This document shows positions 4,908 through 27,407 of a DNA stretch of 64,000 bases, in pieces (the stretch's first letter is position 1; the number at the start of each line of letters is the position of its first letter). The position numbers were made by a program, and so were the translations under genes. The notes beneath the pieces were generated by a model that was given only the letters and a program-made list of their open reading frames with translations, was not told the DNA's origin and searched no databases. The stretch covers positions 35,439-99,438 of the forward strand of contig CALUYS010000001.1 in assembly GCA_944325065.1 (NCBI GenBank). The letters run 5' to 3'. Source of the stretch: Candidatus Gastranaerophilales bacterium. Its GTDB lineage: Bacteria; Cyanobacteriota; Vampirovibrionia; Gastranaerophilales; Gastranaerophilaceae.

Positions 4908-4941
4908 GTTTCTTATAAAGGAAAAATAATTAAATAAGATT

Positions 4942-5976
4942 ATGGAAAAACAATCTAAAGATATTAAAACTCCTTGCCTATCAATTATTTTACCTTGTTA
5001 TAATGTTGATAAATATATTGAAAAAGCATTATTATCAGTTATCAATCAGACACTTAAAAATATTGAAATAATTTGTATTAATGATGGTTCAAATGATAAA
5101 ACTTTTGACATTATTAATAAATTTGCATTAGAAGATAAACGTATTAAAGTGTTTAATCAAGAAAATCAAGGACAAGGTGTGGCTCGTAATAATGGTATAG
5201 CTTATGCAACAGCTCCATATATTGCTTTTATGGATCCTGATGATTGGGTTGCAATAGATATGTATGAAAATCTTTATAATCTCATTGTTCTCAATGATGC
5301 TGATTTTGTTGAATGTGATTTAAATAAATATTATGAAACGTCAGGTGAGTTAAAAAAGGTAAAATTTGATTATCCTGCAATGGAAAATAAAATATTTAAT
5401 TACAAAAGCGACAAAAATTACGTCTTTAAAGGAACTTCTTTGTCACCTTGCAATAAATTATTTAAAAAATCCTTTATAATCAGTAATAATATATATTTTT
5501 CAAGCAGAAAATTATCTGAAGATCAAATTTTTATTTTAAAGGCGAAAATATTTGCCAAAAAAATTATTTATACCCCTATTGCATATTATACATATAATAT
5601 ACATCCAAAGTCTTCACTGACTACACAGAAAGAAGAAAATATTCATTTTGAAAATATTATATATGAAATTAATCAATTTTTTAAATCACAAAATCTTTAT
5701 GATGAATTTAAAAAATATATTGATGAATCTATATTAAATATTGTTAGAGAACATTATACATTATGTCCTATATATTTAAGAAAGAAATTTTTAAAAAATG
5801 CTAAAAACGTACTTGGTAATGATTTGTTTAAAAAATTTAATAAAAATCGTAAAATTGAAAATAAAAATAAATTTATAGAAAATATATTTTCTTTAAAAAA
5901 TGAATATAAGTTTGGTGTAAAATATAAAAGAGTTACATTGTTGGGATTGAAATTTGAGTTTGTAATAAAAAAGTAG
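4942..5976 (+). CDS. GT2 family glycosyltransferase with C-terminal Lys-rich tag module
   Basis: LSIILPCYNVDKYIEKALLSVINQT...ICINDGSNDKT and DPDD are typical of the GT-A GT2 fold. The last 30 aa are IFSLKNEYKFGVKYKRVTLLGLKFEFVIKK. Confidence 0.85.
   Translation: MEKQSKDIKTPCLSIILPCYNVDKYIEKALLSVINQTLKNIEIICINDGSNDKTFDIINKFALEDKRIKVFNQENQGQGVARNNGIAYATAPYIAFMDPDDWVAIDMYENLYNLIVLNDADFVECDLNKYYETSGELKKVKFDYPAMENKIFNYKSDKNYVFKGTSLSPCNKLFKKSFIISNNIYFSSRKLSEDQIFILKAKIFAKKIIYTPIAYYTYNIHPKSSLTTQKEENIHFENIIYEINQFFKSQNLYDEFKKYIDESILNIVREHYTLCPIYLRKKFLKNAKNVLGNDLFKKFNKNRKIENKNKFIENIFSLKNEYKFGVKYKRVTLLGLKFEFVIKK
5884..5973 (+). other. Tag module copy 1 (C-terminal on GT2)
   Basis: IFSLKNEYKFGVKYKRVTLLGLKFEFVIKK. 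Confidence 0.8.
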
Positions 5977-6981: not shown

Positions 6982-8071
6982 AAATATAATTCCTGTTGTT
7001 TTTGCTTCGGATGATAATTATGTACCGTATTTGGCGGTTACAATAAAATCTTTGATAGAACATGTTTCAAATGAAAATTTTTATGAAATATTTATTCTTG
7101 AAAATAAAATATCTGAATATAATAAAAAAAACATTCAAAGTTTAAGTAAAATTGATAATGTAAAAATAGAGTTTATTAATGTTGCTGATTATTTAAATAA
7201 CCTTAAATCAGAAACTTTTTTTACTTCAGGTTATATAAATATTTCGTCTTATTTTCGCTGCTTTATTATTGATATTTTTAAAGATTATGATAAAATAATT
7301 TATCTTGATAGTGATATTATTATTCTAGAGGATATTGCAAATTTATATAATATAACAATTTCTAAAAATAAAGCACTTGGTGTTATTCGCGATATTGGTA
7401 TTATAAATATACTTAATAATAAATCAAGAGTTGATTTGTATAAATTTGAAAATTATTTAAAAAAAGATTTAAATCTTTCAAATCCTGCTGATTATTTTCA
7501 AGCTGGTGTTTTAGTAATGAATTTAAAAGAATTGTGTAAAATAAATTTAATAAGTTTGTGTTTTAAAAAAACAAAAGAAATAAAAACACCTTTTTATCAT
7601 GACCAATGTATTTTAAACTCTATATTTTATAATCAAGTTGAATTTCTTCCAATGAAATGGAATCTATTACCTTATTTATTGTATAATGATGACAATATGT
7701 ATTTACCTGATGATATTAAAAATAAATATTTTGAAATTATTGAAAAAAAAGAAGGTATTATACATTATGCAACTTATGAAAAACCTTGGCGATGTCCTGA
7801 TTTGCCTTTGGCTCAAATATGGTGGGAATATGCACGATTGAGTCCTTTTTATGAGGAAATAATTTACCGTAATGCAAAAGAATGGTCTAATATAACTTAT
7901 GAAGAAAAAAATTTACTTAAAAAAGAAGATTATTTTAAATTTAAATGTTTAAAATATAAATTTTTATACTTTTTATCCTTTGGCAAAAAACGTGTTTATT
8001 ATAAAGAAAAATTGAAATTGTATGAATATAATTTAAAAAGAATAGTAAAAATAAAAGCGAGGAAGATATAA
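6965..8071 (+). CDS. GT8 family glycosyltransferase
   Basis: IPVVFASDDNYVPYLAVTIKSL, the DxD motif in YLDSDIII, FQAGVLVMNL, HYATYEKPW. Confidence 0.8.
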   Translation: MSNQNKNIIPVVFASDDNYVPYLAVTIKSLIEHVSNENFYEIFILENKISEYNKKNIQSLSKIDNVKIEFINVADYLNNLKSETFFTSGYINISSYFRCFIIDIFKDYDKIIYLDSDIIILEDIANLYNITISKNKALGVIRDIGIINILNNKSRVDLYKFENYLKKDLNLSNPADYFQAGVLVMNLKELCKINLISLCFKKTKEIKTPFYHDQCILNSIFYNQVEFLPMKWNLLPYLLYNDDNMYLPDDIKNKYFEIIEKKEGIIHYATYEKPWRCPDLPLAQIWWEYARLSPFYEEIIYRNAKEWSNITYEEKNLLKKEDYFKFKCLKYKFLYFLSFGKKRVYYKEKLKLYEYNLKRIVKIKARKI

Positions 8072-11034
8072 TGTCAACTAATCCCAAGATATCTGTTATA
8101 ATGTCAAGTTATAATCGTACTCAATATATAAAAGAAGCAATTGAGTCAATATTAAATCAAACATATCAAGATTTTGAATTTATTATTATTGATGATTGTT
8201 CTAAAAAAGAAACTCAAGATGTTATTGAAAACTATGCACAGAATGATGAAAGAATAATTTTTTTGAAAAATGAATATAATATGGGTCAAGCCTTAACTCG
8301 AAATAGGGGACTTGAAATTGCAAAAGGTGAATATATTGCAATTTTGGATGATGATGATATATCTTTACCAACACGTTTTGAAAAACAGGTGGAATATATG
8401 GATAAAAACCCTGAGATTATACTTTCCGGAACTGATATCGAAACTTTTGGTGGTAATGAAATATCATCATCTTGGGTAGATTTATTTGACCCTGAAATTA
8501 TATCAGTTTTAATAAATTTTTATAATCCTTTTTGTGCTTCAACTTTAATGTTCAGAAATAATTTTATAAAAGAGCATAATATTAAATATGATAATAGTGT
8601 TTGTCATGTAGAAGACTATGATTTGTATAGGCAAATTCTTGTAGCAGGTGGAAAAATTTCTAATTTGCCTCAAGTGCTTGTAAAATATAGAGTTCATAAA
8701 CAAAGCGTGACTCAGAATAAACAAAGTCAGAAAATACAAATCCTTGCATCAGAAAAAGTTAAACAAAGGTTATTAAGTAGATTCTTTGACAATAAAACAG
8801 TAGAAAAAATTATTAATACTATAAAATCTTATCCTTTTTACAATGCTAATAATAAAAAGGATATTTATGAATATCTTATGCTTATGAAAAAAAATAATAG
8901 CAATAAAATTATTAACAATAATTCAATAGATAAAACAATTGAGTTTATATGTGGAAAATCTTCGATAATGAATATATTCTTTTCTTCTAATAATAATTAT
9001 TCTCAACATTTATGTGTATCTATTGCATCTATACTTATTAATTCTTTACCAATTGAAAATTTTAATTTTTATATTTTAGACGGAGGGATTAAAGATAAAA
9101 ATAAAGAAAAAATATTAAATTTGAAAAGAATTAAAAATTTTAATATTGAATTTATAAAAATTGACGATAAACTTTTCAAGGATTGTGATATTACTTCAGA
9201 ATGTATGCATATTTCTAAACAAACATATTATAGATATATAATTCCAAAATTGAAACCTCAAATAAAAAAATGTTTATATTTAGATTGTGATATTGTTGTT
9301 AATAATAGTTTAAATGAATTGTGGAATATAGATTTAGAAGATAATTATATTGCAGCAGTTGAAGATTTATCATTAATAACAAATGATGATGCAAAACGTC
9401 TTGAAATAAATCATTATTTTAATGCCGGTGTTCTGCTAATTAATAATGAACTTTGGATAAAAGATAATATTACGGAACTTTTATTCCAAAATACATTAAA
9501 AATAAAAGATAAAATTCGTTGGGTTGACCAATGTGTTTTAAATTATACATTTAAAGATAAAGTTTTATTTTTATCTCCGAAATATAATTTACAGCATAGT
9601 GCATATAAAGATACAAAATATAATATATATAGTAAAGACCAAATTGATTTTGTAAAAAAATTTCCTATAATTATTCATTATTCAGGTAGTGATAAACCTT
9701 GGAGTAAAAAATGTATTCATAGTTTATGGAAACAGTATTATAAATATTTAAAATATACTCCTTATAAAAAACAATATTGTACTTATAAATTAAAAAAAAT
9801 TTTAAAAAATATCTTAAGAAGTATTTTTTCAATCCAAAATATAGAATGTTATAAGCTGGTGAAATTTTTTGGTTTAAAATTTTATATTAAAAATAAACAG
9901 AAAGAATATATGTTAAAACTTGAAAATGATATAAAAAATGATATAAAAAATATTGAACATCTTATAAATGGAAATAAGATTTATATAGATGATATTGATA
10001 TTAAAATTAAGAAAAATATACTACAAAATAGTAGATTATGGGATGCTCAATGGTATTTAAAAACATACGGATATAGTTATTATAAAACGGAAGCTTTGAA
10101 TTATTATATTGAAACTGGGTGGAAGAAAAAAGAAAGTCCTTCAAAATATTTTAATACCGAATATTATCTTTTAAAATATGGTAATACTTTGAATAATGAA
10201 ATTCCTGTTATTCATTATTTAACAAAAGGTAAATATTGGTGTTATTATTTAGATAATAAGAACAATTATAAGTCAAAATTTGATGAACAAAATATAAAAA
10301 ATTATCTTGAATACAAAAATAATAGAAATGCTAAAGGTGTTATTTATACTTGTATTACGAATGATTATGATGATATATATGAAATAGAGACATATAAATA
10401 TGTTAATAAAGATTGGGATTATGTTTGTTTTACTGATAATCAAGAACATATAAAAAAGGGACAAATAGGTATTTGGCAGATAAGACCTTTGGCATATTGT
10501 GAATCTGATAACACTCGTAACAACAGGTGGCATAAAATACATCCTCATATTTTATTTCCTGAATATGAAAAAAGTATATATATTGATGCAAATATTAATA
10601 TTTTATCAAATAAATTATTTAATATAATCAATCAAAAAAATACTAATATTGTTCTACCTGAACATTTTAATACTTCTTGTATATATCAAGAACTTAATTG
10701 GGCTTTGGACTCTGGTATAGATAATTATAATATTGTGTTTAAACAATATGAACTTATAAAAAATTCTAATATGCCGAAAAATTATGGATTTACTGAAAAT
10801 AATCTTATTTATCGTAAACATAATGAAAAAAATGTTATTGATTTAATGGATGAATGGTGGTATATGGTATCAAATTATTCAAAACGTGATCAGTTATCAT
10901 TCGTATATTTATTATGGAAACGGCAAATTGATATAGAAGATATCACATTTAAAAATACAAGAATTGATGATGAAAATTTTTATGTATTTGACCATAAAAA
11001 GTTAAGGGAAAAAAGTATTGTTTGTATAAAATAA
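8071..11034 (+). CDS. Multidomain glycosyltransferase: GT2 - GT8 - internal tag module - DUF616/TOD1-like domain
   Basis: 987 aa. N-terminal ISVIMSSYNRTQYIKEAIESILNQT..IIIDDCS (GT2). Middle NIFFSSNNNYSQHLCVSIASIL..YLDCDIVV..HYSGSDKPW (GT8). Tag at 9823-9891. C-terminal GVIYTCITNDYDDI..WDYVCFTD..NRWHKIHPH..IYIDANI..RDQLSF (DUF616-like). Confidence 0.8.
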   Translation: MSTNPKISVIMSSYNRTQYIKEAIESILNQTYQDFEFIIIDDCSKKETQDVIENYAQNDERIIFLKNEYNMGQALTRNRGLEIAKGEYIAILDDDDISLPTRFEKQVEYMDKNPEIILSGTDIETFGGNEISSSWVDLFDPEIISVLINFYNPFCASTLMFRNNFIKEHNIKYDNSVCHVEDYDLYRQILVAGGKISNLPQVLVKYRVHKQSVTQNKQSQKIQILASEKVKQRLLSRFFDNKTVEKIINTIKSYPFYNANNKKDIYEYLMLMKKNNSNKIINNNSIDKTIEFICGKSSIMNIFFSSNNNYSQHLCVSIASILINSLPIENFNFYILDGGIKDKNKEKILNLKRIKNFNIEFIKIDDKLFKDCDITSECMHISKQTYYRYIIPKLKPQIKKCLYLDCDIVVNNSLNELWNIDLEDNYIAAVEDLSLITNDDAKRLEINHYFNAGVLLINNELWIKDNITELLFQNTLKIKDKIRWVDQCVLNYTFKDKVLFLSPKYNLQHSAYKDTKYNIYSKDQIDFVKKFPIIIHYSGSDKPWSKKCIHSLWKQYYKYLKYTPYKKQYCTYKLKKILKNILRSIFSIQNIECYKLVKFFGLKFYIKNKQKEYMLKLENDIKNDIKNIEHLINGNKIYIDDIDIKIKKNILQNSRLWDAQWYLKTYGYSYYKTEALNYYIETGWKKKESPSKYFNTEYYLLKYGNTLNNEIPVIHYLTKGKYWCYYLDNKNNYKSKFDEQNIKNYLEYKNNRNAKGVIYTCITNDYDDIYEIETYKYVNKDWDYVCFTDNQEHIKKGQIGIWQIRPLAYCESDNTRNNRWHKIHPHILFPEYEKSIYIDANINILSNKLFNIINQKNTNIVLPEHFNTSCIYQELNWALDSGIDNYNIVFKQYELIKNSNMPKNYGFTENNLIYRKHNEKNVIDLMDEWWYMVSNYSKRDQLSFVYLLWKRQIDIEDITFKNTRIDDENFYVFDHKKLREKSIVCIK
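9823..9891 (+). other. Tag module copy 2 (internal, shortened)
   Basis: IFSIQNIECYKLVKFFGLKFYIK, located between the GT8 and DUF616-like parts. Confidence 0.65.
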
Positions 11035-11063: not shown

Positions 11064-12017
11064 ATGAATTTATTAATAACAGGTGGAGCTGGATTTATTG
11101 GTTCTACATTAGCTGATAAATTATTAAAAATTGAAAGTAATAATATTATTGTCATTGACAATTTTAATGATTATTATTCTCCCAAGTTGAAAGAAAAAAA
11201 CATAAAACATAATTTAGATAATAAAAAATATAAATTGTATCGTGGTGATATATGCGATAAGAGTTTGTTATCAAGAATATTTAATGAAAGTAAAATTGAT
11301 ATTGTTGTTCATATAGCAGCCTCAGCTGGTGTAAGACCATCTATTGATAAACCTTTAGATTATATAAAAAATAATATAGAAGGTACGGTCAATATTCTTG
11401 AAGTGATGAAAAAAAATAACGTAAAAAAAATAGTATTTGCTTCATCAAGTTCAATATATGGCAATTGCAAGGAAAAAGTATTTTCTGAAGATTTAAAAGT
11501 TTCTGAGCCAATATCGCCTTATGCAGCTTCAAAATCAGCTTGTGAACAGTTTTTGTACACATATTCAAAATTATTTGATATTCAAGTTGTGGCATTAAGG
11601 TTTTTTACGGTTTTTGGACCAAGACAAAGGCCGGACTTGGCAATTCGTAAATTTATTGATTTAATTAAAGAAAATAAGTCAATACCAGTATATGGTGATG
11701 GTACAACAATCCGTGATTATACATATGTTGATGATATAGTTGATGGAATAATTGGTGCTATAAAATATAATGATACACAATATGAAATAATTAATCTTGG
11801 AGGCGGTGCTCCTGTTAGTTTAAATCAAATGATTGAAACAATTGAGAAAGCTTTAAATAAAAAAGCAAAAATAGAACGATTACCTATGCAACCAGGAGAT
11901 GTCAATAAAACAGTAGCTTCTATAACAAAAGCAAAAAAACTTTTAAATTATAATCCTAAAACAAGTTTTGAAAATGGTATAATAAAATTTATTGAATGGG
12001 AGAAAAATAATGAATAA
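11064..12017 (+). CDS. NAD-dependent epimerase, UDP-glucuronate 4-epimerase-like
   Basis: [66 protein letters not shown]. This pattern is typical of UDP-GlcA 4-epimerases. Confidence 0.7.
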   Translation: MNLLITGGAGFIGSTLADKLLKIESNNIIVIDNFNDYYSPKLKEKNIKHNLDNKKYKLYRGDICDKSLLSRIFNESKIDIVVHIAASAGVRPSIDKPLDYIKNNIEGTVNILEVMKKNNVKKIVFASSSSIYGNCKEKVFSEDLKVSEPISPYAASKSACEQFLYTYSKLFDIQVVALRFFTVFGPRQRPDLAIRKFIDLIKENKSIPVYGDGTTIRDYTYVDDIVDGIIGAIKYNDTQYEIINLGGGAPVSLNQMIETIEKALNKKAKIERLPMQPGDVNKTVASITKAKKLLNYNPKTSFENGIIKFIEWEKNNE

Positions 12018-13116
12018 CAATATAATTAGGATATGTATTTTACATCCTCAAGTTTCAAATGTTGATTGGATGTTTAGTTTTTTGAAAATTCCTAATGAAA
12101 AATATCATTTTGTGTGGGATGATAAAAATCCTGATTATATTATTGCATCAGAATGGGTATATTATGAATCAGAATTTTTTAACAAATTTTTATCATTACA
12201 AAAACCGAATGTTATAAATATTTTTTTTGCTGGTGAATGTCTTGAACCAGATTTAAATATTTTTGACTATGCTATAGTTTTTGATAAAAATTTAAAATAT
12301 GAAGACAGAGTTTCAAGAATCCCTACACTTCAATTTTTTGGTAAATATGTTAATGATTCTTTTTTTGAAACAGTTGAAAATCCAAAAGAGTTATTAAAAC
12401 ACAAAACAGGCTTCTGTAATTTTATATATTCAAATGGTAATGCACATCCCAATCGTGATAAATTATTTTATAAAATATCTGAATATAAAAAAGTTGATTC
12501 TTTAGGACCACACTTAAGAAATGTTGAAGTAAAAGAGCCATTAGTTCATTGGAGTGAAAAAAAACGTTATAAGTTTTCAATAGCTTGTGAAAATGCTTGT
12601 TATAAAGGATACACAAGTGAAAAAATAATAACAAGCTTTGCTGCAAATACAATACCCATTTATTGGGGAGATCCATTGGTTGAAAATTTTTTTAATCCGA
12701 AAGCTTTTATAAATGCTAATAATAAAAGTTTTGATGAAGTATTAAAAATTGTTCAAGAAATTGACAATAATGATCAGTTGTGGTGTAAAATAATAGCTGA
12801 ACCTCATATTTTAGATTGGCAAAAAGAAAATTTTATAAAAGAGAAAGAAGAATTTCAACAATTTTTATACAATATTTTTGATCAAGAAATTGAACAAGCA
12901 AAAAGAGTTGGACAAGGATATCATCCAACAAATTATCGTAAATGGTTTAGAACATTAACAACAAAGGATGTTTATGGAAATTATGAATGTATAATTAAAA
13001 AAAATAATTTTTTACAAAATGTATTTTCTGTAAGAAATTCATTTGAAGCAAATCAAAAAAGGAAAATAATAAGTTTATTTGGTATTAAATTTAAATTCAA
13101 GACGAGCAAGGTTTAA
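12010..13116 (+). CDS. GT10 family alpha-1,3/4-fucosyltransferase-like protein with C-terminal tag module
   Basis: CNFIYSNGNAHPNRDKLF and KFSIACENACYKGYTSEKI resemble the conserved GT10 FucT motifs. I prefer the ATG at 12010, which follows GGGAGA; the ORF track starts at TTG 11992. Confidence 0.65.
   Translation: MNNNIIRICILHPQVSNVDWMFSFLKIPNEKYHFVWDDKNPDYIIASEWVYYESEFFNKFLSLQKPNVINIFFAGECLEPDLNIFDYAIVFDKNLKYEDRVSRIPTLQFFGKYVNDSFFETVENPKELLKHKTGFCNFIYSNGNAHPNRDKLFYKISEYKKVDSLGPHLRNVEVKEPLVHWSEKKRYKFSIACENACYKGYTSEKIITSFAANTIPIYWGDPLVENFFNPKAFINANNKSFDEVLKIVQEIDNNDQLWCKIIAEPHILDWQKENFIKEKEEFQQFLYNIFDQEIEQAKRVGQGYHPTNYRKWFRTLTTKDVYGNYECIIKKNNFLQNVFSVRNSFEANQKRKIISLFGIKFKFKTSKV
13021..13113 (+). 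other. Tag module copy 3 (C-terminal on GT10)
   Basis: VFSVRNSFEANQKRKIISLFGIKFKFKTSKV. Confidence 0.75.
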
Positions 13117-14229: not shown

Positions 14230-15315
14230 ATGAAAATTTTAGAAAAAATAATATCTATTAAAAATCAATATAATAATGGTTATAAATACAAAAAATTGAA
14301 TATTTTAGGAATAAAAATTAAACATAAATCTGGAGAGCAATTTTTTAAAGAAAAAAGAAAAATTGATAAAATAAGAAATAATTTCACAATTGATATTAAT
14401 AAATTTTCTAAAAAATATAAAACTAATAAAATATATCCATTTTTAGTAAACCATATTTCCCATATTGATGAAATAAACGAGTTTTTATACAGTAAATTAT
14501 CTTATGTTGATAAAAAAACTTTTATAGAATTTCTTTTTAAACGATATGCACAAGTTGAAGTTATAGCAGACAATGAAAAACAAAAACTTGATAAAATATT
14601 TAAACAAATTGATAAATTACTATTAGCTAGAAAAAATATTTATGAACCAGTTGAGATAGAAAGTGATATTTTTAATTGTGGCAAAAAGGTAATTAAATTT
14701 ATAACAGGTAAAGAAAATGTTGAGCAAATTGGTGAAATATGTGCTTGTTATAATATAGTTCATTCATTTATTTTAAACGAATATTTTTTAGATGGTTTTT
14801 TGCCTGAAAATGGTAAGGTAATATTAGATTGTGGAGCAGCTATGGGGGATACTGCAATTGTATTTTCAAAACAATATCCTGATTCAAAAATTTATAGTTT
14901 TGAATGTATTGGAAAAAATATTGAGTTATTAAATAAAAATTTAGAATTAAATAATATATCTAACGTTATTCCAATAAAGACTTTTTTAGCGTCAAAAACT
15001 GGTAAAATTAATATTGATAGTATAGAATATGATTCAATATCAATCGATGATTATGTTAAGAAAAATAATATTAATAATATTGGACTTATTAAGTTTGATA
15101 TTGAAGGTGCTGAGTTAGAAGCATTAAATGGAGGCATAAATACTATTAAAGAACACAAACCACTATTATACATTCCTATATATCATTTGGAAACTGATAT
15201 ATATGAAATCCCTAAATTTATATATAATTTAGGTTTAAGAACCAAGTTCGGATTAAAATGGGTTGAAAAAAGAATTTGGGGAGTTGATTGCGTTTTATTT
15301 TGTAAGTTTGTGTAA
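14230..15315 (+). CDS. FkbM family methyltransferase with N-terminal tag module
   Basis: LDCGAAMGDTAIVF and IKFDIEGAELEAL are FkbM signatures. The tag lies at aa 7-33. Confidence 0.75.
   Translation: MKILEKIISIKNQYNNGYKYKKLNILGIKIKHKSGEQFFKEKRKIDKIRNNFTIDINKFSKKYKTNKIYPFLVNHISHIDEINEFLYSKLSYVDKKTFIEFLFKRYAQVEVIADNEKQKLDKIFKQIDKLLLARKNIYEPVEIESDIFNCGKKVIKFITGKENVEQIGEICACYNIVHSFILNEYFLDGFLPENGKVILDCGAAMGDTAIVFSKQYPDSKIYSFECIGKNIELLNKNLELNNISNVIPIKTFLASKTGKINIDSIEYDSISIDDYVKKNNINNIGLIKFDIEGAELEALNGGINTIKEHKPLLYIPIYHLETDIYEIPKFIYNLGLRTKFGLKWVEKRIWGVDCVLFCKFV
14248..14328 (+). other. Tag module copy 4 (N-terminal on FkbM MTase)
   Basis: IISIKNQYNNGYKYKKLNILGIKIKHK. Confidence 0.75.
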
Positions 15316-15323: not shown

Positions 15324-16148
15324 TTAATTTTTACAAACCGCAATAAGTTTTTCATATGAAGAACATATCCCAACTTCAACTATTTCTGTTTTTAAAGGAT
15401 TGGGTAAAGAATATAGTTTTACATCTTTATAATACATTTTTAAAATAAAGTAAAGCTCGCCTGCATCAAATTCTTGAGTATGATATTTATAAGGAGGTGC
15501 TACAATTTCTTCTTTTTTATAATATCGATCTCTGTTTGGTGTTGCAATAATTGCATAATCTGATAATTGAACAAATTTATCTAAAAATGACTTATAATCT
15601 TTTATATGTTCAATAACGTCTATTGAAATGGCAAGATCAAATTTTTGAGGATATTTTTCAAGAATTTCTTCTATACTATAATCACAATAAGTTACATTTT
15701 GTATGTTTCTATTTTCAATTACCCACCTTGTTGAGCTTTGATCCATTTCAGAAGCTAAAAAATTAATATTAGGATAAATTTTTGCGTTATAATATTCAAA
15801 AGTTCCAACACCACTTCCAATATTTACAATATTTTTTACACCATTTAAAAAATTCATACCTATAACTTTATTACAGTTTATCATATCTTCCCATTCAAAA
15901 ACACCACCATTTTTGACTCTTTCTAGTTTTATTTCTATATTGCCACATCCTAATTCATTTTCATTACCTTTATATTTATATCCGCATTGTGAAATTAAAT
16001 TACTATTATATATACTTGATGGTGATAAGATTTTTGTATAATTATATTTTTGTTTAAACTTTATATTTAAGCCTAAAATATTTATGATTTTATGTTTTTT
16101 ATTATTCTTATATTCATTTTTAATAGAAAATACATTTTTTAAATTCAT
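15324..16148 (-). CDS. Class I SAM-dependent methyltransferase with N-terminal tag module
   Basis: VNIGSGVGTFE (motif I) and DLAISIDVIEHI. The tag lies at aa 6-32. Confidence 0.7.
   Translation of the reverse strand: MNLKNVFSIKNEYKNNKKHKIINILGLNIKFKQKYNYTKILSPSSIYNSNLISQCGYKYKGNENELGCGNIEIKLERVKNGGVFEWEDMINCNKVIGMNFLNGVKNIVNIGSGVGTFEYYNAKIYPNINFLASEMDQSSTRWVIENRNIQNVTYCDYSIEEILEKYPQKFDLAISIDVIEHIKDYKSFLDKFVQLSDYAIIATPNRDRYYKKEEIVAPPYKYHTQEFDAGELYFILKMYYKDVKLYSLPNPLKTEIVEVGICSSYEKLIAVCKN
16053..16133 (-). other. Tag module copy 5 (N-terminal on class I MTase)
   Basis: VFSIKNEYKNNKKHKIINILGLNIKFK. Confidence 0.85.
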
Positions 16149-16169: not shown

Positions 16170-18047
16170 TTAATTAAAGCTACAATTTTTACATTCTTTA
16201 TTAATTCGTCCATGTTTTTTATGAAAATTTCTAATTGATTCATAAATTCCATTTGTATAAGTATTTAATATTTTTGAATTTTTTATATTTTTCTTTATAA
16301 TGCCTTCTGCATCAAAACAACAAAGAGCAAAATCTCCATTACTCAATATGCTTATTGTTCTATATAAAATTTCACATGGTTTTTTTAATAAATTATTTTT
16401 TTGCGGACAGTTATTTTTTTTCTCTTTATTTACCCATTGACCCAATTTAATAATACGAATATTTGCAAAATTCTCAAATTTATTTTTAAAATTTGAAACC
16501 ATATCTTTATTGTCAATGTGTGAAACGATTGATACATTTATTTTTATGTCACTTTTTAGCTTTTGTTTTAATTTAAATAATAAATTAAGATTATTCAGTG
16601 TGAGATTCAAATCTAGTCCCATTATTTTATTATATTCAACTTCATCAAGAGAATTGATACTTACTGTTATTTCATCAAGTTTGGCTTCTAATATTTCATA
16701 AAGTAATTTTTCATTTGCAAGTTGTAAATTTGTTGTAAATCTTATTGGTATTTGAGGAAAATTTTCTTTTAATTTTTTAATTCGACTGACAATTTTTTTA
16801 TCAAGCAAAGGTTCACCATTTAAATGTAGAATAAATTGCGTTACTTTGATTTTTTCATCTTTAATTCTTTTTATTATTAAATTAAAAATTTCATCAGTCA
16901 TAAAATTTTTTTTTCTTACAAGATTTGGATTTGGACAAAATTTACATTTTGCATTACAAAAACTTGTTGTTTCAATTTCTATTTCAAAATTCAATTTGTT
17001 TGTTTTTAGTAAATAATCTTTAGATGAATTTAATGAAAGCAAATTTTGACTTTTCGTTTTTATTAAATTTAAAAAATTATTTTTCTTATTTTCTATTTTT
17101 AATAATTTTCCGAGTTCATAATCCCACTCGATTGGTTCAAAAGCTTCCATGCCATTGCCTGGATAAAAAGTGACTTCACTAAAATAAATTTGATTGTTTA
17201 CATTATAAAAATCAACACGTGCAAATTGAAAATCTTTACCTAGAATCTCGGCAAGTTCTACTAATTTATTTAAATTTTGAGGTTTTTTTATACCGTTTGG
17301 TGAATTTTTATATAGTCTTTCAAAAGGTAATTTATTCCAATTTATATCATAAAAATCTACATATAAATTATTTTTTCGATTTGAAACAACAAATAAATTT
17401 TTAACTTTTCCATTGTAGCACATAAATTTATAGTCATATAAATCATTATTTAGTTGTTGTATATATTTTTCGCATATTATTTTGGGTTTAATATTTTTAT
17501 AAGACCATTCAAAAGAATAAAAATAGTGATTTGAACGCGGCTCAAGCCACTCATTTAATTTAGTCTTTGTTTCTTCTATATTTAATTGTGACTTATCTTT
17601 AACAATAATATTTTGTCCACTACCCCAATTAACTTTTAGTACAAATTGATTGGGTAAAGCACTAAAATCAATTTCATCAGGATTATTGTAAACTCCAATT
17701 AATGGTATAAGGTATTCTTCTCCTATTTTTTCTTTAATATAATTTCGAACAAGATATTTATCCGCACACTTAGTCAATAGTGGATCTTCATTATACAATT
17801 TTAGCCATTGCATTTTTTCATTAAATGTTTTTGGGCTATCAATATTTGGTTTATAGCCAACCTGCTCTTCAAATTGTTTTTCAACTATTAATTTTTTTTC
17901 TTTTATTGAAATATCTGGACTATATCTTTTATTTAGAGCTTTTTCATATTTTGAAAATAATCTCAATTTGAGTTTTAATCCTAAAATATTTATAACTTTA
18001 TGTTTTTTGTTATTTTGATATTCATTTTTTATTGATAGTAATTTCAT
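16170..18047 (-). CDS. Fusion protein: N-terminal tag, TupA-like ATP-grasp domain, then radical SAM (SPASM-like Cys-rich C-terminus)
   Basis: TFNEKMQWLKLYNEDPLLTKCADKYLVRNYI..FVLKVNWGSGQNIIVKDK (ATPgrasp_TupA-like). ETTSFCNAKCKFCPN (CX3CX2C). C-terminal CEILY..CCFDAEG..CKNC. Likely start is ATG 18047, after GGGAGA; the ORF track starts at TTG 18059. Confidence 0.75.
   Translation of the reverse strand: MKLLSIKNEYQNNKKHKVINILGLKLKLRLFSKYEKALNKRYSPDISIKEKKLIVEKQFEEQVGYKPNIDSPKTFNEKMQWLKLYNEDPLLTKCADKYLVRNYIKEKIGEEYLIPLIGVYNNPDEIDFSALPNQFVLKVNWGSGQNIIVKDKSQLNIEETKTKLNEWLEPRSNHYFYSFEWSYKNIKPKIICEKYIQQLNNDLYDYKFMCYNGKVKNLFVVSNRKNNLYVDFYDINWNKLPFERLYKNSPNGIKKPQNLNKLVELAEILGKDFQFARVDFYNVNNQIYFSEVTFYPGNGMEAFEPIEWDYELGKLLKIENKKNNFLNLIKTKSQNLLSLNSSKDYLLKTNKLNFEIEIETTSFCNAKCKFCPNPNLVRKKNFMTDEIFNLIIKRIKDEKIKVTQFILHLNGEPLLDKKIVSRIKKLKENFPQIPIRFTTNLQLANEKLLYEILEAKLDEITVSINSLDEVEYNKIMGLDLNLTLNNLNLLFKLKQKLKSDIKINVSIVSHIDNKDMVSNFKNKFENFANIRIIKLGQWVNKEKKNNCPQKNNLLKKPCEILYRTISILSNGDFALCCFDAEGIIKKNIKNSKILNTYTNGIYESIRNFHKKHGRINKECKNCSFN
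17961..18041 (-). other. Tag module copy 6 (N-terminal on ATP-grasp/radical SAM fusion)
   Basis: LLSIKNEYQNNKKHKVINILGLKLKLR. Confidence 0.85.
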
Positions 18048-18065
18048 TTTATCTCCCAATATTTT

Positions 18066-18218
18066 TTACATAATTTTTATTATCGTTACCTTGGTAAAAT
18101 CCCCTACATATATTAACACAAAAAAATTATAACTTATATAAATAATATTTCTTTATTATGAAATAAAAAAATGTATTATTAAGGCACTTATCTGGTAACG
18201 ATAATAAAAATTATGTAA
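18066..18218. repeat. Perfect 25 bp inverted repeat (18066-18090 / 18194-18218) flanking a 103 bp AT-rich spacer in a divergent promoter region
   Basis: TTACATAATTTTTATTATCGTTACC on the left is the exact reverse complement of GGTAACGATAATAAAAATTATGTAA on the right; I checked it base by base. The arms end 18 nt and 15 nt from the two divergent start codons. Confidence 0.9.
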
Positions 18219-18233
18219 GAATGGTTTTTTAAA

Positions 18234-19208
18234 ATGGGAGAACATAAAAATAATATAAAAATCGCTTTTTGTTTTGATAATAATTTGATGAAACAAATTT
18301 GTGTTACGGTTGCAAGTTTGCTTGATGCTAGTAAAAATAGTTGTTCTCATTACGATATTTATTGTATATGTTCCAATGGAGCAGAAAAAGTTGAAAATAA
18401 GTTAAAAAAAATTGTTAAAAAACGCGATAAATTTTCAAATATATTCCTATATCCAGTAGAAAATAAATATGCAAATGGTTATGAAATTAGAAAAATTACA
18501 AGTGGTGCATATTTAAGACTTCAATTGCATAATATTTTATCAAATCTTGATAAAATTATTTATTGCGATGTAGACATTTTATTTAAAAATAATTTGCAAG
18601 AAATTTGGGATATTCCTATTGATCACAACTATTTTATGGGGGTAAAAGGAGCTAATAATTTAAGTCATATTTGGAATGAAAATCTTATAAAATTTAATTA
18701 TTGGAATAAATTTGACAAAAATACTTATATTAATAGTGGGGTAGTTGTTATGAATTTACAAAAAATTCGTGATGACAATCTTGAAAAACAATGGGAAAAC
18801 ATGGTAAATGATGCTTATTTTTACGTGGATCAAGACATTATTAATATTGTTTGTAAAAATAAAATAGGATTTTTGCCTTTAAAATATAACATTCCTGCAT
18901 ATTTAGATAATAATACTCTTTTAAATTATGAAAAAGAAAATATATATGAAAAATCTTTCATTGAAGATGCAATAAATAATCCATCAGTTATTCACTATGC
19001 AGGAGAAAAACCTTGGGATAATCCAAATATATTAAATAGTTATTATTGGATTAATTATGTAAAAAGTCAAAAGGATTTGAAAAAAATGTTTAAAACAAAA
19101 CAAAAAATAAAATTATTTAGCATAAATAATGAATATTCAAATAATAAAAAATACAAAGTTATTACTTTATTTGGAATAAAAATAAAACTACGATGTAAGA
19201 AAGGGTAA
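18234..19208 (+). CDS. GT8 family glycosyltransferase with C-terminal tag module
   Basis: IKIAFCFDNNLMKQICVTVASLL, YCDVDILF (DxD), NSGVVVMNL, HYAGEKPW. Confidence 0.8.
   Translation: MGEHKNNIKIAFCFDNNLMKQICVTVASLLDASKNSCSHYDIYCICSNGAEKVENKLKKIVKKRDKFSNIFLYPVENKYANGYEIRKITSGAYLRLQLHNILSNLDKIIYCDVDILFKNNLQEIWDIPIDHNYFMGVKGANNLSHIWNENLIKFNYWNKFDKNTYINSGVVVMNLQKIRDDNLEKQWENMVNDAYFYVDQDIINIVCKNKIGFLPLKYNIPAYLDNNTLLNYEKENIYEKSFIEDAINNPSVIHYAGEKPWDNPNILNSYYWINYVKSQKDLKKMFKTKQKIKLFSINNEYSNNKKYKVITLFGIKIKLRCKKG
19113..19205 (+). other. Tag module copy 7 (C-terminal on GT8)
   Basis: LFSINNEYSNNKKYKVITLFGIKIKLRCKKG. Confidence 0.85.
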
Positions 19209-19210
19209 AA

Positions 19211-20530
19211 ATGTTAAATTATAAAAAAATATTACTTATAAATCCTTATATCAAACTAGATCGAGAAAATCCAATCGCTATACTTGATATGGCTCCATAT
19301 TTTAGAAAATGTGGTATAGAAGTTGATGTATGTAATTTTCCCGATCTACCTGAGTTTAAAGATTATGATATGATAGGTATAAGTTGTATTTCAAGTGAAG
19401 GCGGATATATTTTTGAGCAACTTAAAGTTATTCGCGAACATTTTCGAGGAAAGAAAATAGTTATTGGTGGAAAATGGTCAACAACAATGACAGAGGAAGA
19501 AGCTTTAAAATTGCAGACTTTAAATATTGAAGTTGAAACAGGCAAAGGAGAACTTGTTTATACAAATGATAAAGTTATAAATTTTGAAAAGTATCCTTCA
19601 TGGGATAAAAATGATTTTGAAATTCTGTGTGCCAATAATATAATGATGACATCTCGTGGTTGTCCTTTTCATTGTAATTTTTGCAATAATACCGAAGAAA
19701 AAGTAAGTTATTTTACTGCTAAACGAACTGTAGATAATCTTGAACTTATTTTGAGTAAAAATAATGATGTATACTTTGTAGATGATATTTTTGTTACAAA
19801 TTATGAACATGCAAAAGCAATTTATGATGAATGTAAACGACGTAAAATTAAAATTGAAAACCATAATAAATTTTTTGTACATCTAAATACGGTTAATGAT
19901 AAAACTATTAAAATAATCAAATTGTTTAAACCCAAAATGGTTAATGTTGGCATTGAGTCAGGTAATGATTCAATGCTAAAAAAGATGAATAAAAAAACAA
20001 GTGTTGAAAAAATAAGAAAAAATGTAAAAACTCTTTCAAAATATACAAATGTCCATGGTTTATGGATGGTCGGTTATCCTTATGAAACAATTGATACACT
20101 TAAAAATTCTTGGAATTTAATGAAGGAACTTGCTCCATACATACATTCAAATTGGATAAGTCATTATATTCCCTTGTATGCTACAGTTGGATATCATATG
20201 GCAATGGAAGAAGGTGGTAAATTTAATCAAGGTATTGATAATCGTCATGTTGCTTATATACCTAAAGGTTTAACTCAAGACATTTTAATTGAATATAGAA
20301 CAAAAATGATGCAATTTAATAATATTTTATTTAAAAGACAAAATATATACAAATATTACTTTTATAAAATTGTTTCAAAAATTTCAATAGGTAAATTAAG
20401 AAAAAAAGTTAAGGCAAAGTATAAAACATTAAAGTCGCAATTCTCTCCCCCCCCCCCGATAAAATCCAATATTTTAGATTTAATTTATATTCTAAGATTA
20501 TCTTGTTTTTTAAATGTTTTTTATATTTGA
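19211..20530 (+). CDS. B12-binding-domain radical SAM enzyme (class B-like)
   Basis: The N-terminal ~130 aa have a Rossmann-like B12-binding layout, followed by MTSRGCPFHCNFCNN (CX3CX2C) and VGIESGND. The 3' end contains a C11 tract. Confidence 0.7.
   Translation: MLNYKKILLINPYIKLDRENPIAILDMAPYFRKCGIEVDVCNFPDLPEFKDYDMIGISCISSEGGYIFEQLKVIREHFRGKKIVIGGKWSTTMTEEEALKLQTLNIEVETGKGELVYTNDKVINFEKYPSWDKNDFEILCANNIMMTSRGCPFHCNFCNNTEEKVSYFTAKRTVDNLELILSKNNDVYFVDDIFVTNYEHAKAIYDECKRRKIKIENHNKFFVHLNTVNDKTIKIIKLFKPKMVNVGIESGNDSMLKKMNKKTSVEKIRKNVKTLSKYTNVHGLWMVGYPYETIDTLKNSWNLMKELAPYIHSNWISHYIPLYATVGYHMAMEEGGKFNQGIDNRHVAYIPKGLTQDILIEYRTKMMQFNNILFKRQNIYKYYFYKIVSKISIGKLRKKVKAKYKTLKSQFSPPPPIKSNILDLIYILRLSCFLNVFYI
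20447..20457 (+). repeat. Homopolymeric C11 tract inside the 3' end of the B12-radical SAM gene
   Basis: Counted directly: ttctct + 11 C + gat. It encodes SPPPP in the called frame. Confidence 0.95.
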
Positions 20531-20548
20531 GAAATGAGGTAATTTAAG

Positions 20549-21454
20549 ATGAAATTTATTTCTTTTAAAAACGAGTATTTAAACGATAAAAAGTATAAAG
20601 TTTTAACTTTATTTGGAATAAAATTTAGATTTAAGTCAAAAAAACAAAATCAAATAAACAATTGTAATTATTTGCAAACATTACCCCGCTTGGAGATTCA
20701 TGTATGTGATAAATGCAATTTAAATTGTCGTGGTTGTACACATTATTGTAATGTTGCACAAGAAGATAGATTTGTTGATATAAGTAATTTTGAAAAGGAT
20801 ATAAAAGAAGTTGCTAAAAAACTTAATTTTTATGAAATCAAACTTTTGGGTGGTGAACCTTTGCTACATCCTAATTTAATTGAATTCTTTAGATTAACTC
20901 GTCAAGCATTTCCAACAAGTAAAATTATTTTAACAACGAACTTAATTTTGCTTGATACGATGAAAGAAAATTTTTGGGAAGCTATGAAGAAACACAATAT
21001 TGTTTTTCAATTGACAAAATATCCTCCAATGAATGAAAAATTTGTTCACTATTTGGATTTAATTGCTTCTCATAATATTATTATCGACAATATTCATGTT
21101 GCAAATGAGTTTTGGTTGTTTAAAAATCCGAATGGAGATTCAAATTCTCAAGAAGTTTATAAACAATGTCCTGAAGCTTATTGCCGACAACTTCGTGACG
21201 GAAGATTATATATTTGCCCTGATGCTTGTTATATGGATTATTATAATAAATACTTTAGTAAAAATATTCCAGTTGACAAAGGAATAGATGTTTATAAACA
21301 TTCAAGTGAGGAAATTTATAATTATTTGACAACACCGAAAGAAACTTGTAAATTTTGTTTTGCAAAGGACAAATTTAAATACGTACCTTGGGAAAAATCA
21401 CAAAAAAAATATGATGAATGGGATGGAGAAGTGGCAAATGAAGTTATTGTTTAA
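20549..21454 (+). CDS. Radical SAM enzyme with N-terminal tag module
   Basis: LEIHVCDKCNLNCRGCTHY (CX3CX2C), LLGGEPLLHP. The tag lies at aa 3-29. Confidence 0.7.
   Translation: MKFISFKNEYLNDKKYKVLTLFGIKFRFKSKKQNQINNCNYLQTLPRLEIHVCDKCNLNCRGCTHYCNVAQEDRFVDISNFEKDIKEVAKKLNFYEIKLLGGEPLLHPNLIEFFRLTRQAFPTSKIILTTNLILLDTMKENFWEAMKKHNIVFQLTKYPPMNEKFVHYLDLIASHNIIIDNIHVANEFWLFKNPNGDSNSQEVYKQCPEAYCRQLRDGRLYICPDACYMDYYNKYFSKNIPVDKGIDVYKHSSEEIYNYLTTPKETCKFCFAKDKFKYVPWEKSQKKYDEWDGEVANEVIV
20555..20635 (+). other. Tag module copy 8 (N-terminal on radical SAM)
   Basis: FISFKNEYLNDKKYKVLTLFGIKFRFK. Confidence 0.85.
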
Positions 21455-21490
21455 GTTTAAGCTTATTAGATAATAATGAAGAGGTATAAA

Positions 21491-22351
21491 ATGAATACAA
21501 TAAATAAAAATGGAATATCAGAAGTAACGACGTCACAATTTGGTGAGGATATTATTGTTAATTACTTAATAAAATTATTAAAAAACAACAATATTATTAA
21601 TGATATGACATATATTGATATTGGAGCTTGTGATCCTGTTAGAAATAATAATACAATTAGATTTTATGAACAAAATTTAAATACAAATATGATGTTGAAA
21701 AGTGTTTTAATTGAAGCAAATCCTTATCAATATGAAAGATGTAAAAAAAATCGTCCTAATGATATAGTTCTTAATGCAATAATTGTTGATAAAAAAAATG
21801 ATAATAAAAAAATACCATTTTATGTATTTGCGAATGAATCTGGTTTGAATACAATGTCAAAAATTCAAGCTGAAAGTATATTAAAAGAATTACCTAATGT
21901 ATTTACTCATTATGATACTGTTATGGTTGATACAATAACGATAAATGAAATAATAGACAAATATTTTAATAATAAACCACCAGTTTTTATAGATCTAGAT
22001 ATCGAAGGAATAGAGTTAAAAATATTAAAATCTTTTAATTTTAAAAAATCCAAACCTTTGATATGGTGTATTGAAACATCTGAATTAATTACTGACTTTG
22101 AAGTTGGGAAAAAAGAGAATGACATAGTAAGTTTTATGAAAAGTAAAGGCTATGAGGTATATGCTGATACTTATTTAAATACTATTTTTATAGATAAAAA
22201 TATTTTAAAAAAACTTGTCCGCAAGCATAGTATGAAAAATAGTTGTATAAATATAGAAAAGATATTTTCTATAAAAAATAAATATTCAAATAATAAAAAA
22301 CATAAAATTTTGACTATTTTTGGTGTAAAATTTAAGATAAGATGTAAATAG
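21491..22351 (+). CDS. FkbM family methyltransferase with C-terminal tag module
   Basis: YIDIGACDPV and FIDLDIEGIELKIL. I prefer the ATG at 21491, after GAAGAGG; the ORF track starts at 21476. Confidence 0.7.
   Translation: MNTINKNGISEVTTSQFGEDIIVNYLIKLLKNNNIINDMTYIDIGACDPVRNNNTIRFYEQNLNTNMMLKSVLIEANPYQYERCKKNRPNDIVLNAIIVDKKNDNKKIPFYVFANESGLNTMSKIQAESILKELPNVFTHYDTVMVDTITINEIIDKYFNNKPPVFIDLDIEGIELKILKSFNFKKSKPLIWCIETSELITDFEVGKKENDIVSFMKSKGYEVYADTYLNTIFIDKNILKKLVRKHSMKNSCINIEKIFSIKNKYSNNKKHKILTIFGVKFKIRCK
22262..22348 (+). other. Tag module copy 9 (C-terminal on FkbM MTase)
   Basis: IFSIKNKYSNNKKHKILTIFGVKFKIRCK. Confidence 0.85.
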
Positions 22352-25620: not shown

Positions 25621-27407
25621 TTAATCAAAGCAAGAATTAAAAACATTATCAAGAGAAACATCGTTTTGTTGGTATTTTTTCTCAAAATTATTAGTTATCT
25701 CTTCTTGGTTAATAGTTTGTGACGTTTTATAATATGTGTCGACTTTATAATATGTATAAGTGTTGTTATTATTTTTAAATCTCAAATAGTTCCAAGCATG
25801 TCCCCCATTATCAATAGCACATGCTTGGAGATTTTCTAATTCTGAATTATTTATTAAGTGGTTAACAAGTGTAGCCATATGTCGACAAACACCCAAACCA
25901 TAAACTAAACCTACCATGTTATCATCAAAAACATTACATTCTTTTTCTCGTTCTATTTCACCTAATAAACAATGTTGTAATAAATTATCATTATCCTTGG
26001 GATAAAATTCATTAATTGTCTCTTGTAAACTTTGTATAATATTTTCTGGTGTTCTATTATTAGCAATTTTATTTTTAAAGCATTCTAAAGCTTTATTTTT
26101 TTGTTTATCAATTTCTTGTTTTATAGTATTATTATTTATAATATTTAAAATACTTTTTATATGTGATATATTTCCTTTGTGTTGAGATAATAAACGAACA
26201 ATTTCTTCTTGTTTACTTTTAAATGGTATATTTTGATTTAAATAATTTTTAAATTTTTCTTGTTCTTCAATTCCTAATTCAATTGATGATGTTTTTTTTT
26301 TATTGGTTCAGTATTTTGTGATATTTTATAACTATTATTATTAAAATCGAAAATATGTGTTTTATCACTAGTTCTATAAACTAATTTATAATCATCTAAA
26401 GTATAATTTTTTAATTTATCATTATCTATTAAATTTTTTATTAATGTAATTATTTTATTTTTAGTAATAATTTCATATTGCAATAACGCATCATCAACTT
26501 TTTTATCAGAATTATTTAAATTTTTGAAAGTTAGTTCTTGAAGATATGTCATTACTTGACTAGGATCATTAGGTGTTTCCATTCTTAAAAGAGGAGCAGT
26601 TATATTGTTTTCTAAAGATAAAATTTCTTGCTCATTTCTTTTTGTATTATTCAATATTGTTTTTAGTATTTTATCAATATTATTATTATCATTTTCATGA
26701 ACTTCTAATAACGTTTCTATAAATTCTTTTTTATAGTCAGTTGAAGCACTACTTTGTAAAATCTTTTTTAAACTTTTATTGTTTTTTTCAAAATCTTTTG
26801 AAAGTTTGCTTTTTGCTTCTAATAAATTCTTATTTGCATTTAAGGTATTACAAATTTCATCAAACCCCTCTACACCATTAAAAAAATCTTGAGTAAAATT
26901 AATATAATTATTTAAATATTGAATACGTTCGGCAATTTTCATATTTTTGCATTCTATTATTTTTTTAAAATGTGCATTAATACAATCAATAATTTTAATT
27001 GATATTTCTTCTTCTGGTTCTTTTTTTAATAAACTATTTAATTCTTCAATATTTTTTGCAAGTTGTTTATGATCAATTTTTGGCTCATTTAAACATTTAA
27101 CATAGTCATCAATGGATTTTTCTTTGATTTTTGGAAGTTTTTCTTTTATTTCTTCATTATTAAATGTTTTTTTAATTTTTTTACCGTTAAAGTAACAAAC
27201 ACCTGTAACTATAGCTAAACCCAAAGTACAAGCACTTGCTATTATCCAATTACGTTTTGTTTTTGATGATTTTTTTTCATCTTTATTTCTTAAAGAAATA
27301 TATTCATCATTTGAAATACCAAACTTTATATGTTTATTTTGTTGACATATATTGTTAGTATTAATGTTATTATTATTATTATTTATACTATTTACATTCA
27401 TATACAT
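25621..27407 (-). pseudogene. Membrane-anchored protein with C-terminal transglutaminase-like Cys-His-Asp domain, split by a frameshift at an A10 run (T10 at 26292-26301 on the plus strand)
   Basis: ORF 26274-27407 (TM segment WIIASACTLGLAIVTGVCYF) stops just after the run. My hand translation shows a second frame open without an ATG from 26307 down to 25621. That frame ends in GLGVCRHMA..GGHAWNYL..VDTYY. Adding one A fuses the two frames. Confidence 0.65.

Follow-up and report, generated by a model that had tools for sequence, protein, structure and literature searches.

Most of what is known about phase variation through slippage at homopolymers comes from a small number of cultured pathogens. 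In the classical poly-G/C contingency loci, which include capsule, lipooligosaccharide and flagellar glycosylation genes and have been described in Campylobacter, Helicobacter (futA/futB), Neisseria and Haemophilus, the tract usually lies early or in the middle of the open reading frame (ORF), and truncation switches the enzyme. Translational coupling through a hairpin that sequesters a ribosome-binding site is known from the coat and replicase genes of MS2 and from the ribosomal-protein and atp operons of Escherichia coli. In these systems, the downstream Shine-Dalgarno sequence and AUG pair with distal upstream coding sequence, and translation of the upstream gene is needed to open the structure. 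That a 3′-terminal tract in one gene can control the next has so far only been suspected, in Campylobacter jejuni, where the poly-G tract at the 3′ end of cj0045 may affect the downstream cj0044 through coupling; translational coupling was suspected there because the upstream ORF, in its long form, runs up to or into the start of the downstream gene (PMC8355987). Here we describe an 11-C tract in 64,000 nucleotides of DNA (the window) from a Candidatus Gastranaerophilales bacterium (contig CALUYS010000001.1, positions 35,439 to 99,438). When DnaA, DnaJ, IlvC, SecD and GlgA of the window were looked up by exact match, the named proteins in their clusters belonged to 'Candidatus Gastranaerophilales bacterium' or 'Candidatus Melainabacteria bacterium'. 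The tract lies at the 3′ end of a gene for a B12-type radical SAM enzyme, immediately upstream of a second radical SAM gene.

The cj0045/cj0044 pair is the closest precedent for this arrangement. In both cases, the genome is AT-rich, an ORF carries a G/C homopolymer at its 3′ end, and the length of the upstream protein is little changed. The present locus differs from the precedent in that it belongs to a different phylum and an uncultured host, carries glycan-modifying radical SAM genes, and is known from sequence alone. In addition, the downstream ribosome-binding site is locked in a predicted 26-bp hairpin, which would give the tract a two-ON, one-OFF logic. Like the poly-G/C contingency loci, the locus combines a G/C run of at least 8 in a surface-glycan locus with length differences and frame-dependent products, whereas the enzyme that carries the tract is predicted to be complete in all frames. 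The predicted pairing of the downstream start region with upstream coding sequence resembles that of MS2 and E. coli. The coupling in those systems is constitutive, however, whereas the reach of the upstream ribosome would here depend on a mutable homopolymer. In Helicobacter pylori, the length of a G-repeat in the mRNA, which is the target of the small RNA RepG, tunes a co-transcribed lipopolysaccharide glycosyltransferase post-transcriptionally (PMC8295292). That repeat is located in a 5′ leader and acts in a graded manner through small-RNA pairing, whereas the tract described here is in the 3′ end of a coding sequence and neither a small RNA nor a complementary partner was found. In the literature searched, we found nothing linking Gastranaerophilales to phase variation or Melainabacteria to homopolymer slippage; one paper linked Melainabacteria with phase-variable systems, namely hsdS invertons.

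The poly-C tract and the enzyme that carries it

The tract is an uninterrupted run of 11 C residues, exactly CCCCCCCCCCC, at positions 20447–20457 of the window on the + strand. A preliminary description of this DNA had pointed to the run as a compositional outlier, and a census of G/C runs bore this out. The G+C content of the window is 25.7%, apart from the tract no G/C run in the 64 kb exceeds one G6, which is located within a coding region, and the number of G/C runs of at least 11 expected from base composition is about 1.8 × 10−5 per 64 kb. The tract is read as TCT CCC CCC CCC CC. and encodes Ser-Pro4. Because CCC is so rarely used for proline in the genes of the window (18 of 468 proline codons, 3.8%), four successive CCC codons are not explained by a need to encode proline.

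The gene that carries the tract (19211–20530, + strand) encodes a radical SAM enzyme whose N-terminal half is B12-binding-like. The Pfam Radical_SAM match had a score of 56 bits (E = 7e-15), and a CxxxCxxC motif (CPFHCNFC) was present at residues 151–158. The B12-binding Pfam match reached 16.5 bits, below the cut-off of 32.1, and the best NCBIfam matches, which were to class-B radical SAM methyltransferases (the PhpK, HpnJ and B12-rSAM families), were all far below their cut-offs. More distant homologues carry PF02310.

Tract length determines which of three C-terminal tails follows the Pro residues. In the C11 frame, the product has 439 amino acids, its tail ends in ...SPPPPIKSNILDLIYILRLSCFLNVFYI, and a TGA stop codon is reached at 20528–20530. 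In the C10 frame, which would also be that of a tract lengthened to C13, the product of 416 amino acids ends in ...SPPPR at a TAA codon (20460–20462 in window numbering); a 416-amino-acid product (P0122) is found in metagenomes. In the C12 frame, the product has 445 amino acids and ends in ...SPPPPDKIQYFRFNLYSKIILFFKCFLYLRNEVI, with a TAA stop codon at 20545–20547, 1 nt before the ATG of the next gene at 20549. These translations exactly reproduced those previously derived by hand.

Homologues with 54–63% identity (P0002–P0008) end at about residues 377–390 of the window protein, 20–35 residues short of the tract. The AlphaFold2 model, for which 19 sequences were used, had a mean predicted local distance difference test (pLDDT) score of 88. 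The score was >90 through about residue 370, about 70 in a long helix that continues to residue 410, <50 at residues 411–419, where the Pro4 segment is located, and 41–55 in the tail. Because homologues end before the tract and the pLDDT score drops at it, the tract lies outside the enzyme fold. The homologue ends and the confidence profile of the model agree with the earlier proposal that the catalytic core is upstream of the tract in every state, and the enzyme is predicted to be intact in all three frames.

A G/C run of at least 7 was present neither at the 3′ ends of distant homologues (L026 and L027) nor in the locus of a sister lineage (L012) nor elsewhere in about 40 kb of related DNA. 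Because distant homologues lack the run, the tract is a recent, lineage-specific feature, as is typical of contingency tracts. No paralogous copy of the 91-nt segment that follows the tract was found.

The predicted hairpin over the downstream start

RNA folding of the region 20420–20580 returned one dominant element, a predicted hairpin at 20491–20549 on the + strand, which was also the centroid structure in the 161-nt context. It comprises 26 bp, of which 23 are contiguous and 7 are G.U pairs, with a 5-nt loop and a folding energy of −22.0 kcal/mol. The opposite strand folds at 0.0 kcal/mol, indicating that the hairpin, owing to its 7 G.U pairs, is a feature of the sense RNA rather than a DNA palindrome. 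In 500 shuffled sequences, the folding energy was −7.6 ± 2.2 kcal/mol and none reached −22 (z ~ −6.5). The hairpin was among the five most stable of 10,656 segments of 72 nt on both strands of the window, the sole more stable place being at 4.8–4.9 kb. When the 48 gene starts of the window were compared, the structure upstream of this start was the most stable (−22.0 kcal/mol versus −17.9 for the next), and most were at −7 or weaker.

The 3′ arm of the hairpin holds the GAGG Shine-Dalgarno sequence of the downstream gene (20536–20539, + strand) and ends on the A of its AUG at 20549. In the predicted pair list, GAGG pairs with 20501–20504, and the predicted probability that its bases are unpaired in free mRNA is at most 0.01. 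The gene that starts here (20549–21454, + strand) encodes a radical SAM enzyme of 301 amino acids with matches to Pfam Radical_SAM and Fer4_12, and is the presumed target of coupling. No Rfam match was found over 17900–21000 at E ≤ 1. No intrinsic terminator was reported, nor any promoter that spans the tract, and the number of promoter-like sites did not exceed that in shuffled sequences.

The three stop codons fall at distinct positions relative to this structure. The C10 stop precedes the hairpin base by 28 nt, the C11 stop is within the 3′ arm just past the loop and 18 nt before the downstream ATG, and the C12 stop is at the 3′ end. The Shine-Dalgarno sequence and the start codon are thus both paired in a predicted stable local structure, into which the C11 and C12 ORFs run and the C10 ORF does not. 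With the C10 stop outside the hairpin and the other two stops inside it, tract length should switch coupling to the downstream radical SAM gene. An effect on translational coupling had been suggested in the preliminary description, and the predicted sequestration of the ribosome-binding site, reached in two frames and not in the third, strengthens that suggestion.

We propose that the poly-C run is a hypermutable contingency tract, placed past the end of a functional enzyme, which gates coupling to the downstream gene through the hairpin at its ribosome-binding site. In our judgement this proposal has a roughly even chance of being correct. Slippage would leave the B12-type radical SAM enzyme active and would set the position at which the upstream ribosome stops relative to the hairpin, which in turn would block translation of the downstream gene unless it is melted by upstream ribosomes. 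In the C11 frame (also C8 and C14) and the C12 frame (also C9), the ribosome would cross the 5′ arm and terminate within the hairpin or at its 3′ end, so that the ribosome-binding site would be opened and translation coupled. In the C10 frame (C13 by length), the ribosome would halt 28 nt before the hairpin, the ribosome-binding site would stay closed, and the downstream enzyme would be poorly made or absent. The altered C-terminal tail would be a by-product, as each frame reads the T-rich 5′ arm differently. Under this proposal, switching would be frequent and reversible, and the hairpin would limit translation.

Tract hypermutability might, however, have no functional consequence. In that case, slippage would have expanded a C run in a dispensable 3′ extension, both enzymes would work whatever the frame, and the hairpin would serve mRNA stability or processing. 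The position of the tract past the conserved fold and its absence from more distant homologues are compatible with this explanation. In addition, none of the three frame-dependent tails was found to resemble anything known, and the hydrophobicity of the C11 tail is ordinary (88th percentile of out-of-frame peptides of this genome). We nevertheless consider it unlikely, as a neutral origin of a run of 11–13 C residues in a genome with 25.7% G+C is very improbable, the tract is located exactly between the end of an ORF and a ribosome-binding site that is more occluded than that of any other of the 48 genes, and the same locus contains another phase-variation device.

Tract length in related contigs

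Contigs were fetched through three neighbouring genes, and the tract was read directly between exact flanks. It was present in at least 16 independent metagenome contigs of one Candidatus Gastranaerophilales species. The sources of the contigs include ONAT22-1 samples (SAMEA6814502, SAMEA6814672, SAMEA6814674, SAMEA6814675, SAMEA6814677, SAMEA6814685, SAMEA6814688 and SAMEA6814689), the runs ERR4096267, ERR4096330 and ERR4096377, and BRZ_* assemblies (ERZ247732xx and ERZ247733xx). Identical flanks and tract recurred in many independent assemblies produced with different assemblers, and the possibility that the tract is an assembly artefact of this record, which had been raised when it was first noticed, is thereby ruled out. 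The tract itself is certainly real. Some of the Logan runs may duplicate samples behind ENA assemblies. The left flank of the tract gave zero hits in a JGI metagenome scan, and when GTDB species representatives were searched for orthologous loci, nothing came up except an Omnitrophota protein with 32% identity.

Comparison of these near-identical genomes revealed length differences of the kind that the preliminary description had proposed to look for. In addition to the window, eight contigs carried C11 (L003, L004, L005, L006, L007, L016, L017 and L022), while five carried C10 (L008, L009, L019, L020 and L028). A 13-C run was present in two contigs of one lineage (L002 and L010), where it arose through the substitution T20446C and left the total length and frame the same as in the C11 state. 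Because these two contigs also share single-nucleotide polymorphisms, an 11-bp deletion in the next-but-one gene and a T8 rather than T10 run at 26292, T20446C is a real lineage allele. Two of the C10 contigs (L019 and L020) had 0 mismatches to the window over 1.3–1.5 kb except at the tract. In contrast, eleven A7–8 runs in the same 4 kb showed 0 length variants in 130 observations, and two A/T9 runs in the same region showed 0 variants in 9 observations. From one assembly to another, the tract thus varies in length to a far greater extent than any other homopolymer nearby. In a public protein collection, the 439-amino-acid (C11) product was recorded from nine contigs and the 416-amino-acid (C10) product from two. 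The gene therefore contains a G/C run of at least 8 whose length differs between near-identical genomes, the differences being read from contigs of low coverage.

Several contigs were irregular next to the tract, and in L010, L018 and L001 the affected stretches correspond to about 20375–20446 of the window and beyond. L010 (11165–11234) carried 17 substitutions in the 70 nt preceding the tract, which resulted in a premature stop and a gene call of 403 amino acids. L018 (1–62) begins with a garbled tract and, as in L010, its substitutions lie less than one read length from the tract. Such a cluster of substitutions within about 70 nt on the 5′ side is the pattern expected of reverse-strand reads that have just passed poly-G. 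L021 begins directly after the tract. In L001 (4209–4299), the match ends at the first C and is followed by 91 nt of unplaced sequence, giving a 422-amino-acid call that is the cluster representative. This 91-nt tail had no match in the window or in any locus and gave zero hits in the JGI metagenome scan. The junction (TCTCT/AAAATCC..) has 7 nt in common with the true post-tract sequence, the tail is shorter than one read, and the other contig from the same sample is L018 with its garbled start. The L001 tail is most likely a contig-end artefact, and the anomalies of L010, L018 and L001 at the tract are probably due to read or chimera artefacts. In practical terms, the tract breaks or corrupts assemblies and yields calls of 403, 416, 422 or 439 amino acids for one and the same gene.

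These irregularities raise the question of whether the tract varies in length at all. If C11 were its fixed state, with C13 fixed in one lineage, then the C10 calls, contig breaks and substitution clusters would be errors of sequencing or assembly and there would be no phase variation. The BRZ contigs with C10 had a coverage of 1.7–1.9x, and only −1 variants were seen, as deletion-biased error would give; the dense substitutions in L010 and L018 and the breaks in L001 and L021 at the tract point in the same direction. On the other hand, C10 was found in 5 of 15 tract-spanning contigs, which came from two projects and always had perfect flanks, the A7–9 runs in the same contigs were invariant, and the T20446C allele common to two samples shows that the tract evolves. 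On balance we regard a fixed length as rather unlikely.

Several observations weigh against a contingency tract that gates coupling. All C10 calls came from short contigs of low coverage, among them the BRZ contigs, and dense apparent read errors in L010 and L018 as well as breaks in several assemblies occur beside the tract; sequencing error could therefore explain the C10/C11 difference partly or entirely. The 90% cluster of the protein contained neither a C12 nor a C9 product, and C12 was absent from the contig census. The tract is the single one of its kind in the 64 kb and has no counterpart in the approximately 40 kb of related loci, so that a genome-wide repertoire of phase-variable genes is unsupported. 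With regard to the hairpin, all copies are near-identical, and the region is lacking both in distant relatives and in relatives with a fused GT8-radical SAM gene, which leaves no covariation signal. Furthermore, when the 5′ arm was held open, the Shine-Dalgarno sequence was still predicted to pair weakly with the downstream coding sequence; this alternative pairing had an energy of only −9.1 kcal/mol over 90 nt, which is in the background range. The earlier interpretation is supported in part, and its suggestion of a contingency tract is strengthened. The compositional outlier in a glycan locus and the length differences between assemblies speak for it, while the C10 calls rest on approximately 2x coverage and may include read errors.

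The C-terminal tails, the glycan locus and its other variable sites

A switch acting on the protein itself is very improbable. In such a switch, C11 would add a proline linker and a hydrophobic C-terminal helix, C10 would remove them, and the membrane association of the B12-type enzyme would be altered. The C11 tail does contain a 19-residue stretch with a mean Kyte-Doolittle value of 1.81 that was modelled as a helix, and one homologue (P0013) has a hydrophobic C-terminal extension. However, 12% of the random out-of-frame peptides of this genome are at least as hydrophobic, the tail was modelled with a pLDDT score of only 41–55, and it is encoded by the 5′ arm of the hairpin, whose T-richness accounts for the hydrophobic residues. 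A function of the C11 tail as a membrane anchor is therefore not supported. That the tract serves as a DNA or RNA signal irrespective of frame, for example as a promoter spacer, a C-rich Rho-loading site or the target of a G-rich small RNA as in the case of RepG, is hardly credible: there is a TAAAAT hexamer just past the tract on its 3′ side and homopolymer length in the mRNA does control a glycosyltransferase operon in H. pylori (PMC8295292), but the promoter scan returned no site spanning the tract, promoter-like sites are at the level of shuffled sequences, Rfam gave no match, and the window contains no complementary G-rich element, only the single coding G6.

The tract is part of a glycan-biosynthesis locus at approximately 4.9–25.6 kb of the window. 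Its genes encode GT2, GT8 and GT10 glycosyltransferases, NDP-sugar epimerases/dehydratases, UDP-glucose dehydrogenase, FkbM-type and other methyltransferases, and three radical SAM enzymes. Nine enzymes of this locus, including glycosyltransferases, methyltransferases, radical SAM enzymes and an ATP-grasp fusion, share a tag of about 35 amino acids (..IFSIKNEY.NNKKYKVITLFGIKFKFK..). The tag is found at the C-terminus of four of them (ORFs 4942–5976, 11992–13116, 18234–19208 and 21476–22351), at the N-terminus of four others (ORFs 14230–15315, 15324–16148 on the − strand, 16170–18059 on the − strand, and 20549–21454), and at a domain junction in one (ORF 8071–11034, residues ~593–624). A hidden Markov model (HMM) was built from these nine tags and run on 2,271 peptides from all six frames. 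It found exactly nine sites with scores of 37–57 bits, whereas the best noise peptide scored 8.4 bits. In the presumed target of coupling, the match covered residues 1–35 with 54 bits.

The preliminary description had speculated that the C12 tail faintly resembles the short form of this tag, in which case tract length might add or remove a tag. This idea was not upheld: the C12 tail scored −1.0 to −1.5 bits on the tag HMM, compared with 37–57 bits for the true tags. A local (Smith-Waterman) alignment of the C12 tail to the short tag had a score of 32 (shuffle p = 0.11), and 3.5% of out-of-frame peptides of similar length aligned as well. The C11 and C10 tails scored no better than the C12 tail. 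We also considered the C-terminus preceding the tract (residues 376–411) as a relocated tag. It scored −0.9 to −2.4 bits on the tag HMM and −3.2 bits on an HMM of the tag-like N-termini of homologues, and was rejected. Distant homologues of the tract-bearing enzyme, which are found in other contexts and have no G/C run, carry such a tag-like N-terminus of their own.

The DNA encoding the tag seems to act as a recombination site through which enzyme modules are inserted, deleted or fused. In sister lineages with about 87% DNA identity, the GT8 gene (18234–19208 in the window) and the downstream radical SAM gene form one fusion of 589–598 amino acids with a single tag (P0126 and others). The 65 nt of tag-coding DNA in one of these, L012 (8893–8957, within the fusion gene at 8001–9782), aligned both to the 3′ end of the GT8 gene (19123–19187, + strand) and to the 5′ end of the downstream radical SAM gene (20565–20629, + strand), which form the left and right copies of a direct repeat. 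Because the single tag of L012 matches both copies, the gene that carries the tract forms, together with the tract itself, the hairpin and the start of the downstream gene, a cassette of about 1.4 kb between direct tag repeats. From these alignments, the cassette may either have been inserted or have been lost in the relatives by tag-tag recombination.

The locus contains further variable or structured sites. Between the divergent genes 16170–18059 (− strand) and 18234–19208 (+ strand), the latter of which is the first gene of the tract operon, a 103-nt segment (18091–18193) is flanked by 28-nt inverted repeats (18063–18090 and 18194–18221; 96% complementary). The segment was exactly reverse-complemented between identical flanks in six independent contigs (L001, L002, L003, L008, L010 and L022) from approximately 99%-identical strains, which, judged from the sequences, is the signature of a site-specific invertible switch, presumably of a promoter. 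A weak promoter-like site, TTAATA-16-CATAAT (18182–18155), lies within the segment and points leftward in the orientation of the window. No recombinase gene was seen near the segment.

A second homopolymer that changes a reading frame was found at 26292–26301, as T10 on the + strand and A10 in a gene on the − strand. With A10, as in the window, L003 and L004, the gene is cut to 377 amino acids (26274–27407, − strand) and followed by a separate ORF of 98 amino acids (25621–25917, − strand). With A8, as in L002 and L010, a single ORF of 592 amino acids is present, and putting 8 T into the window sequence restored an open frame of 594 amino acids. The C-terminal part has a Cys/His/Asp-type motif (..GVCRHMATLVNH..DNGGHAWN..). 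In the lineage with the 13-C allele, the 11-bp deletion (AAAGAATTACC) affects the tagged FkbM-type methyltransferase gene two genes downstream of the tract (21476–22351), which is split into ORFs of 131 and 142 amino acids (L002, 10356–11205; L010, 12281–13130). Finally, the region 4800–4930, upstream of the first gene of the glycan locus (4942–5976), is the sole place in the window where the predicted RNA or DNA structure is more stable than the hairpin at the downstream start, reaching −25 kcal/mol per 72 nt on either strand. A 17-nt inverted repeat (4873–4889 and 4895–4911) is part of this region, which may be a terminator or another regulatory element.

We describe the poly-C run as a candidate simple-sequence contingency tract in a new lineage, for which the coupling mechanism is plausible and more explicit than in the precedent. 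More tentatively, and with some doubt, the invertible 103-nt segment in the upstream promoter region and the poly-C coupling gate, with two frames ON and one OFF, might act as a two-layer stochastic switch on one surface-glycan operon. Such a switch would allow combinatorial modification of the glycan. If the tract does act in this way, no simple-sequence contingency locus would have been described before it in the Melainabacteria/Cyanobacteria lineage, and it would provide a cleaner mechanistic case of a 3′-end tract controlling the next gene than the suspected case of cj0045/cj0044. The combination of a tract, a stop codon and a hairpin at a ribosome-binding site would also make a simple test system for this type of control. 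The gut bacteria studied here are uncultured, and their surface biology is known solely from genomes. If the tract switches, these commensals would diversify their surface glycans stochastically, as do Campylobacter and Bacteroides, which would bear on the pressure that they face from gut phages and from host immunity.

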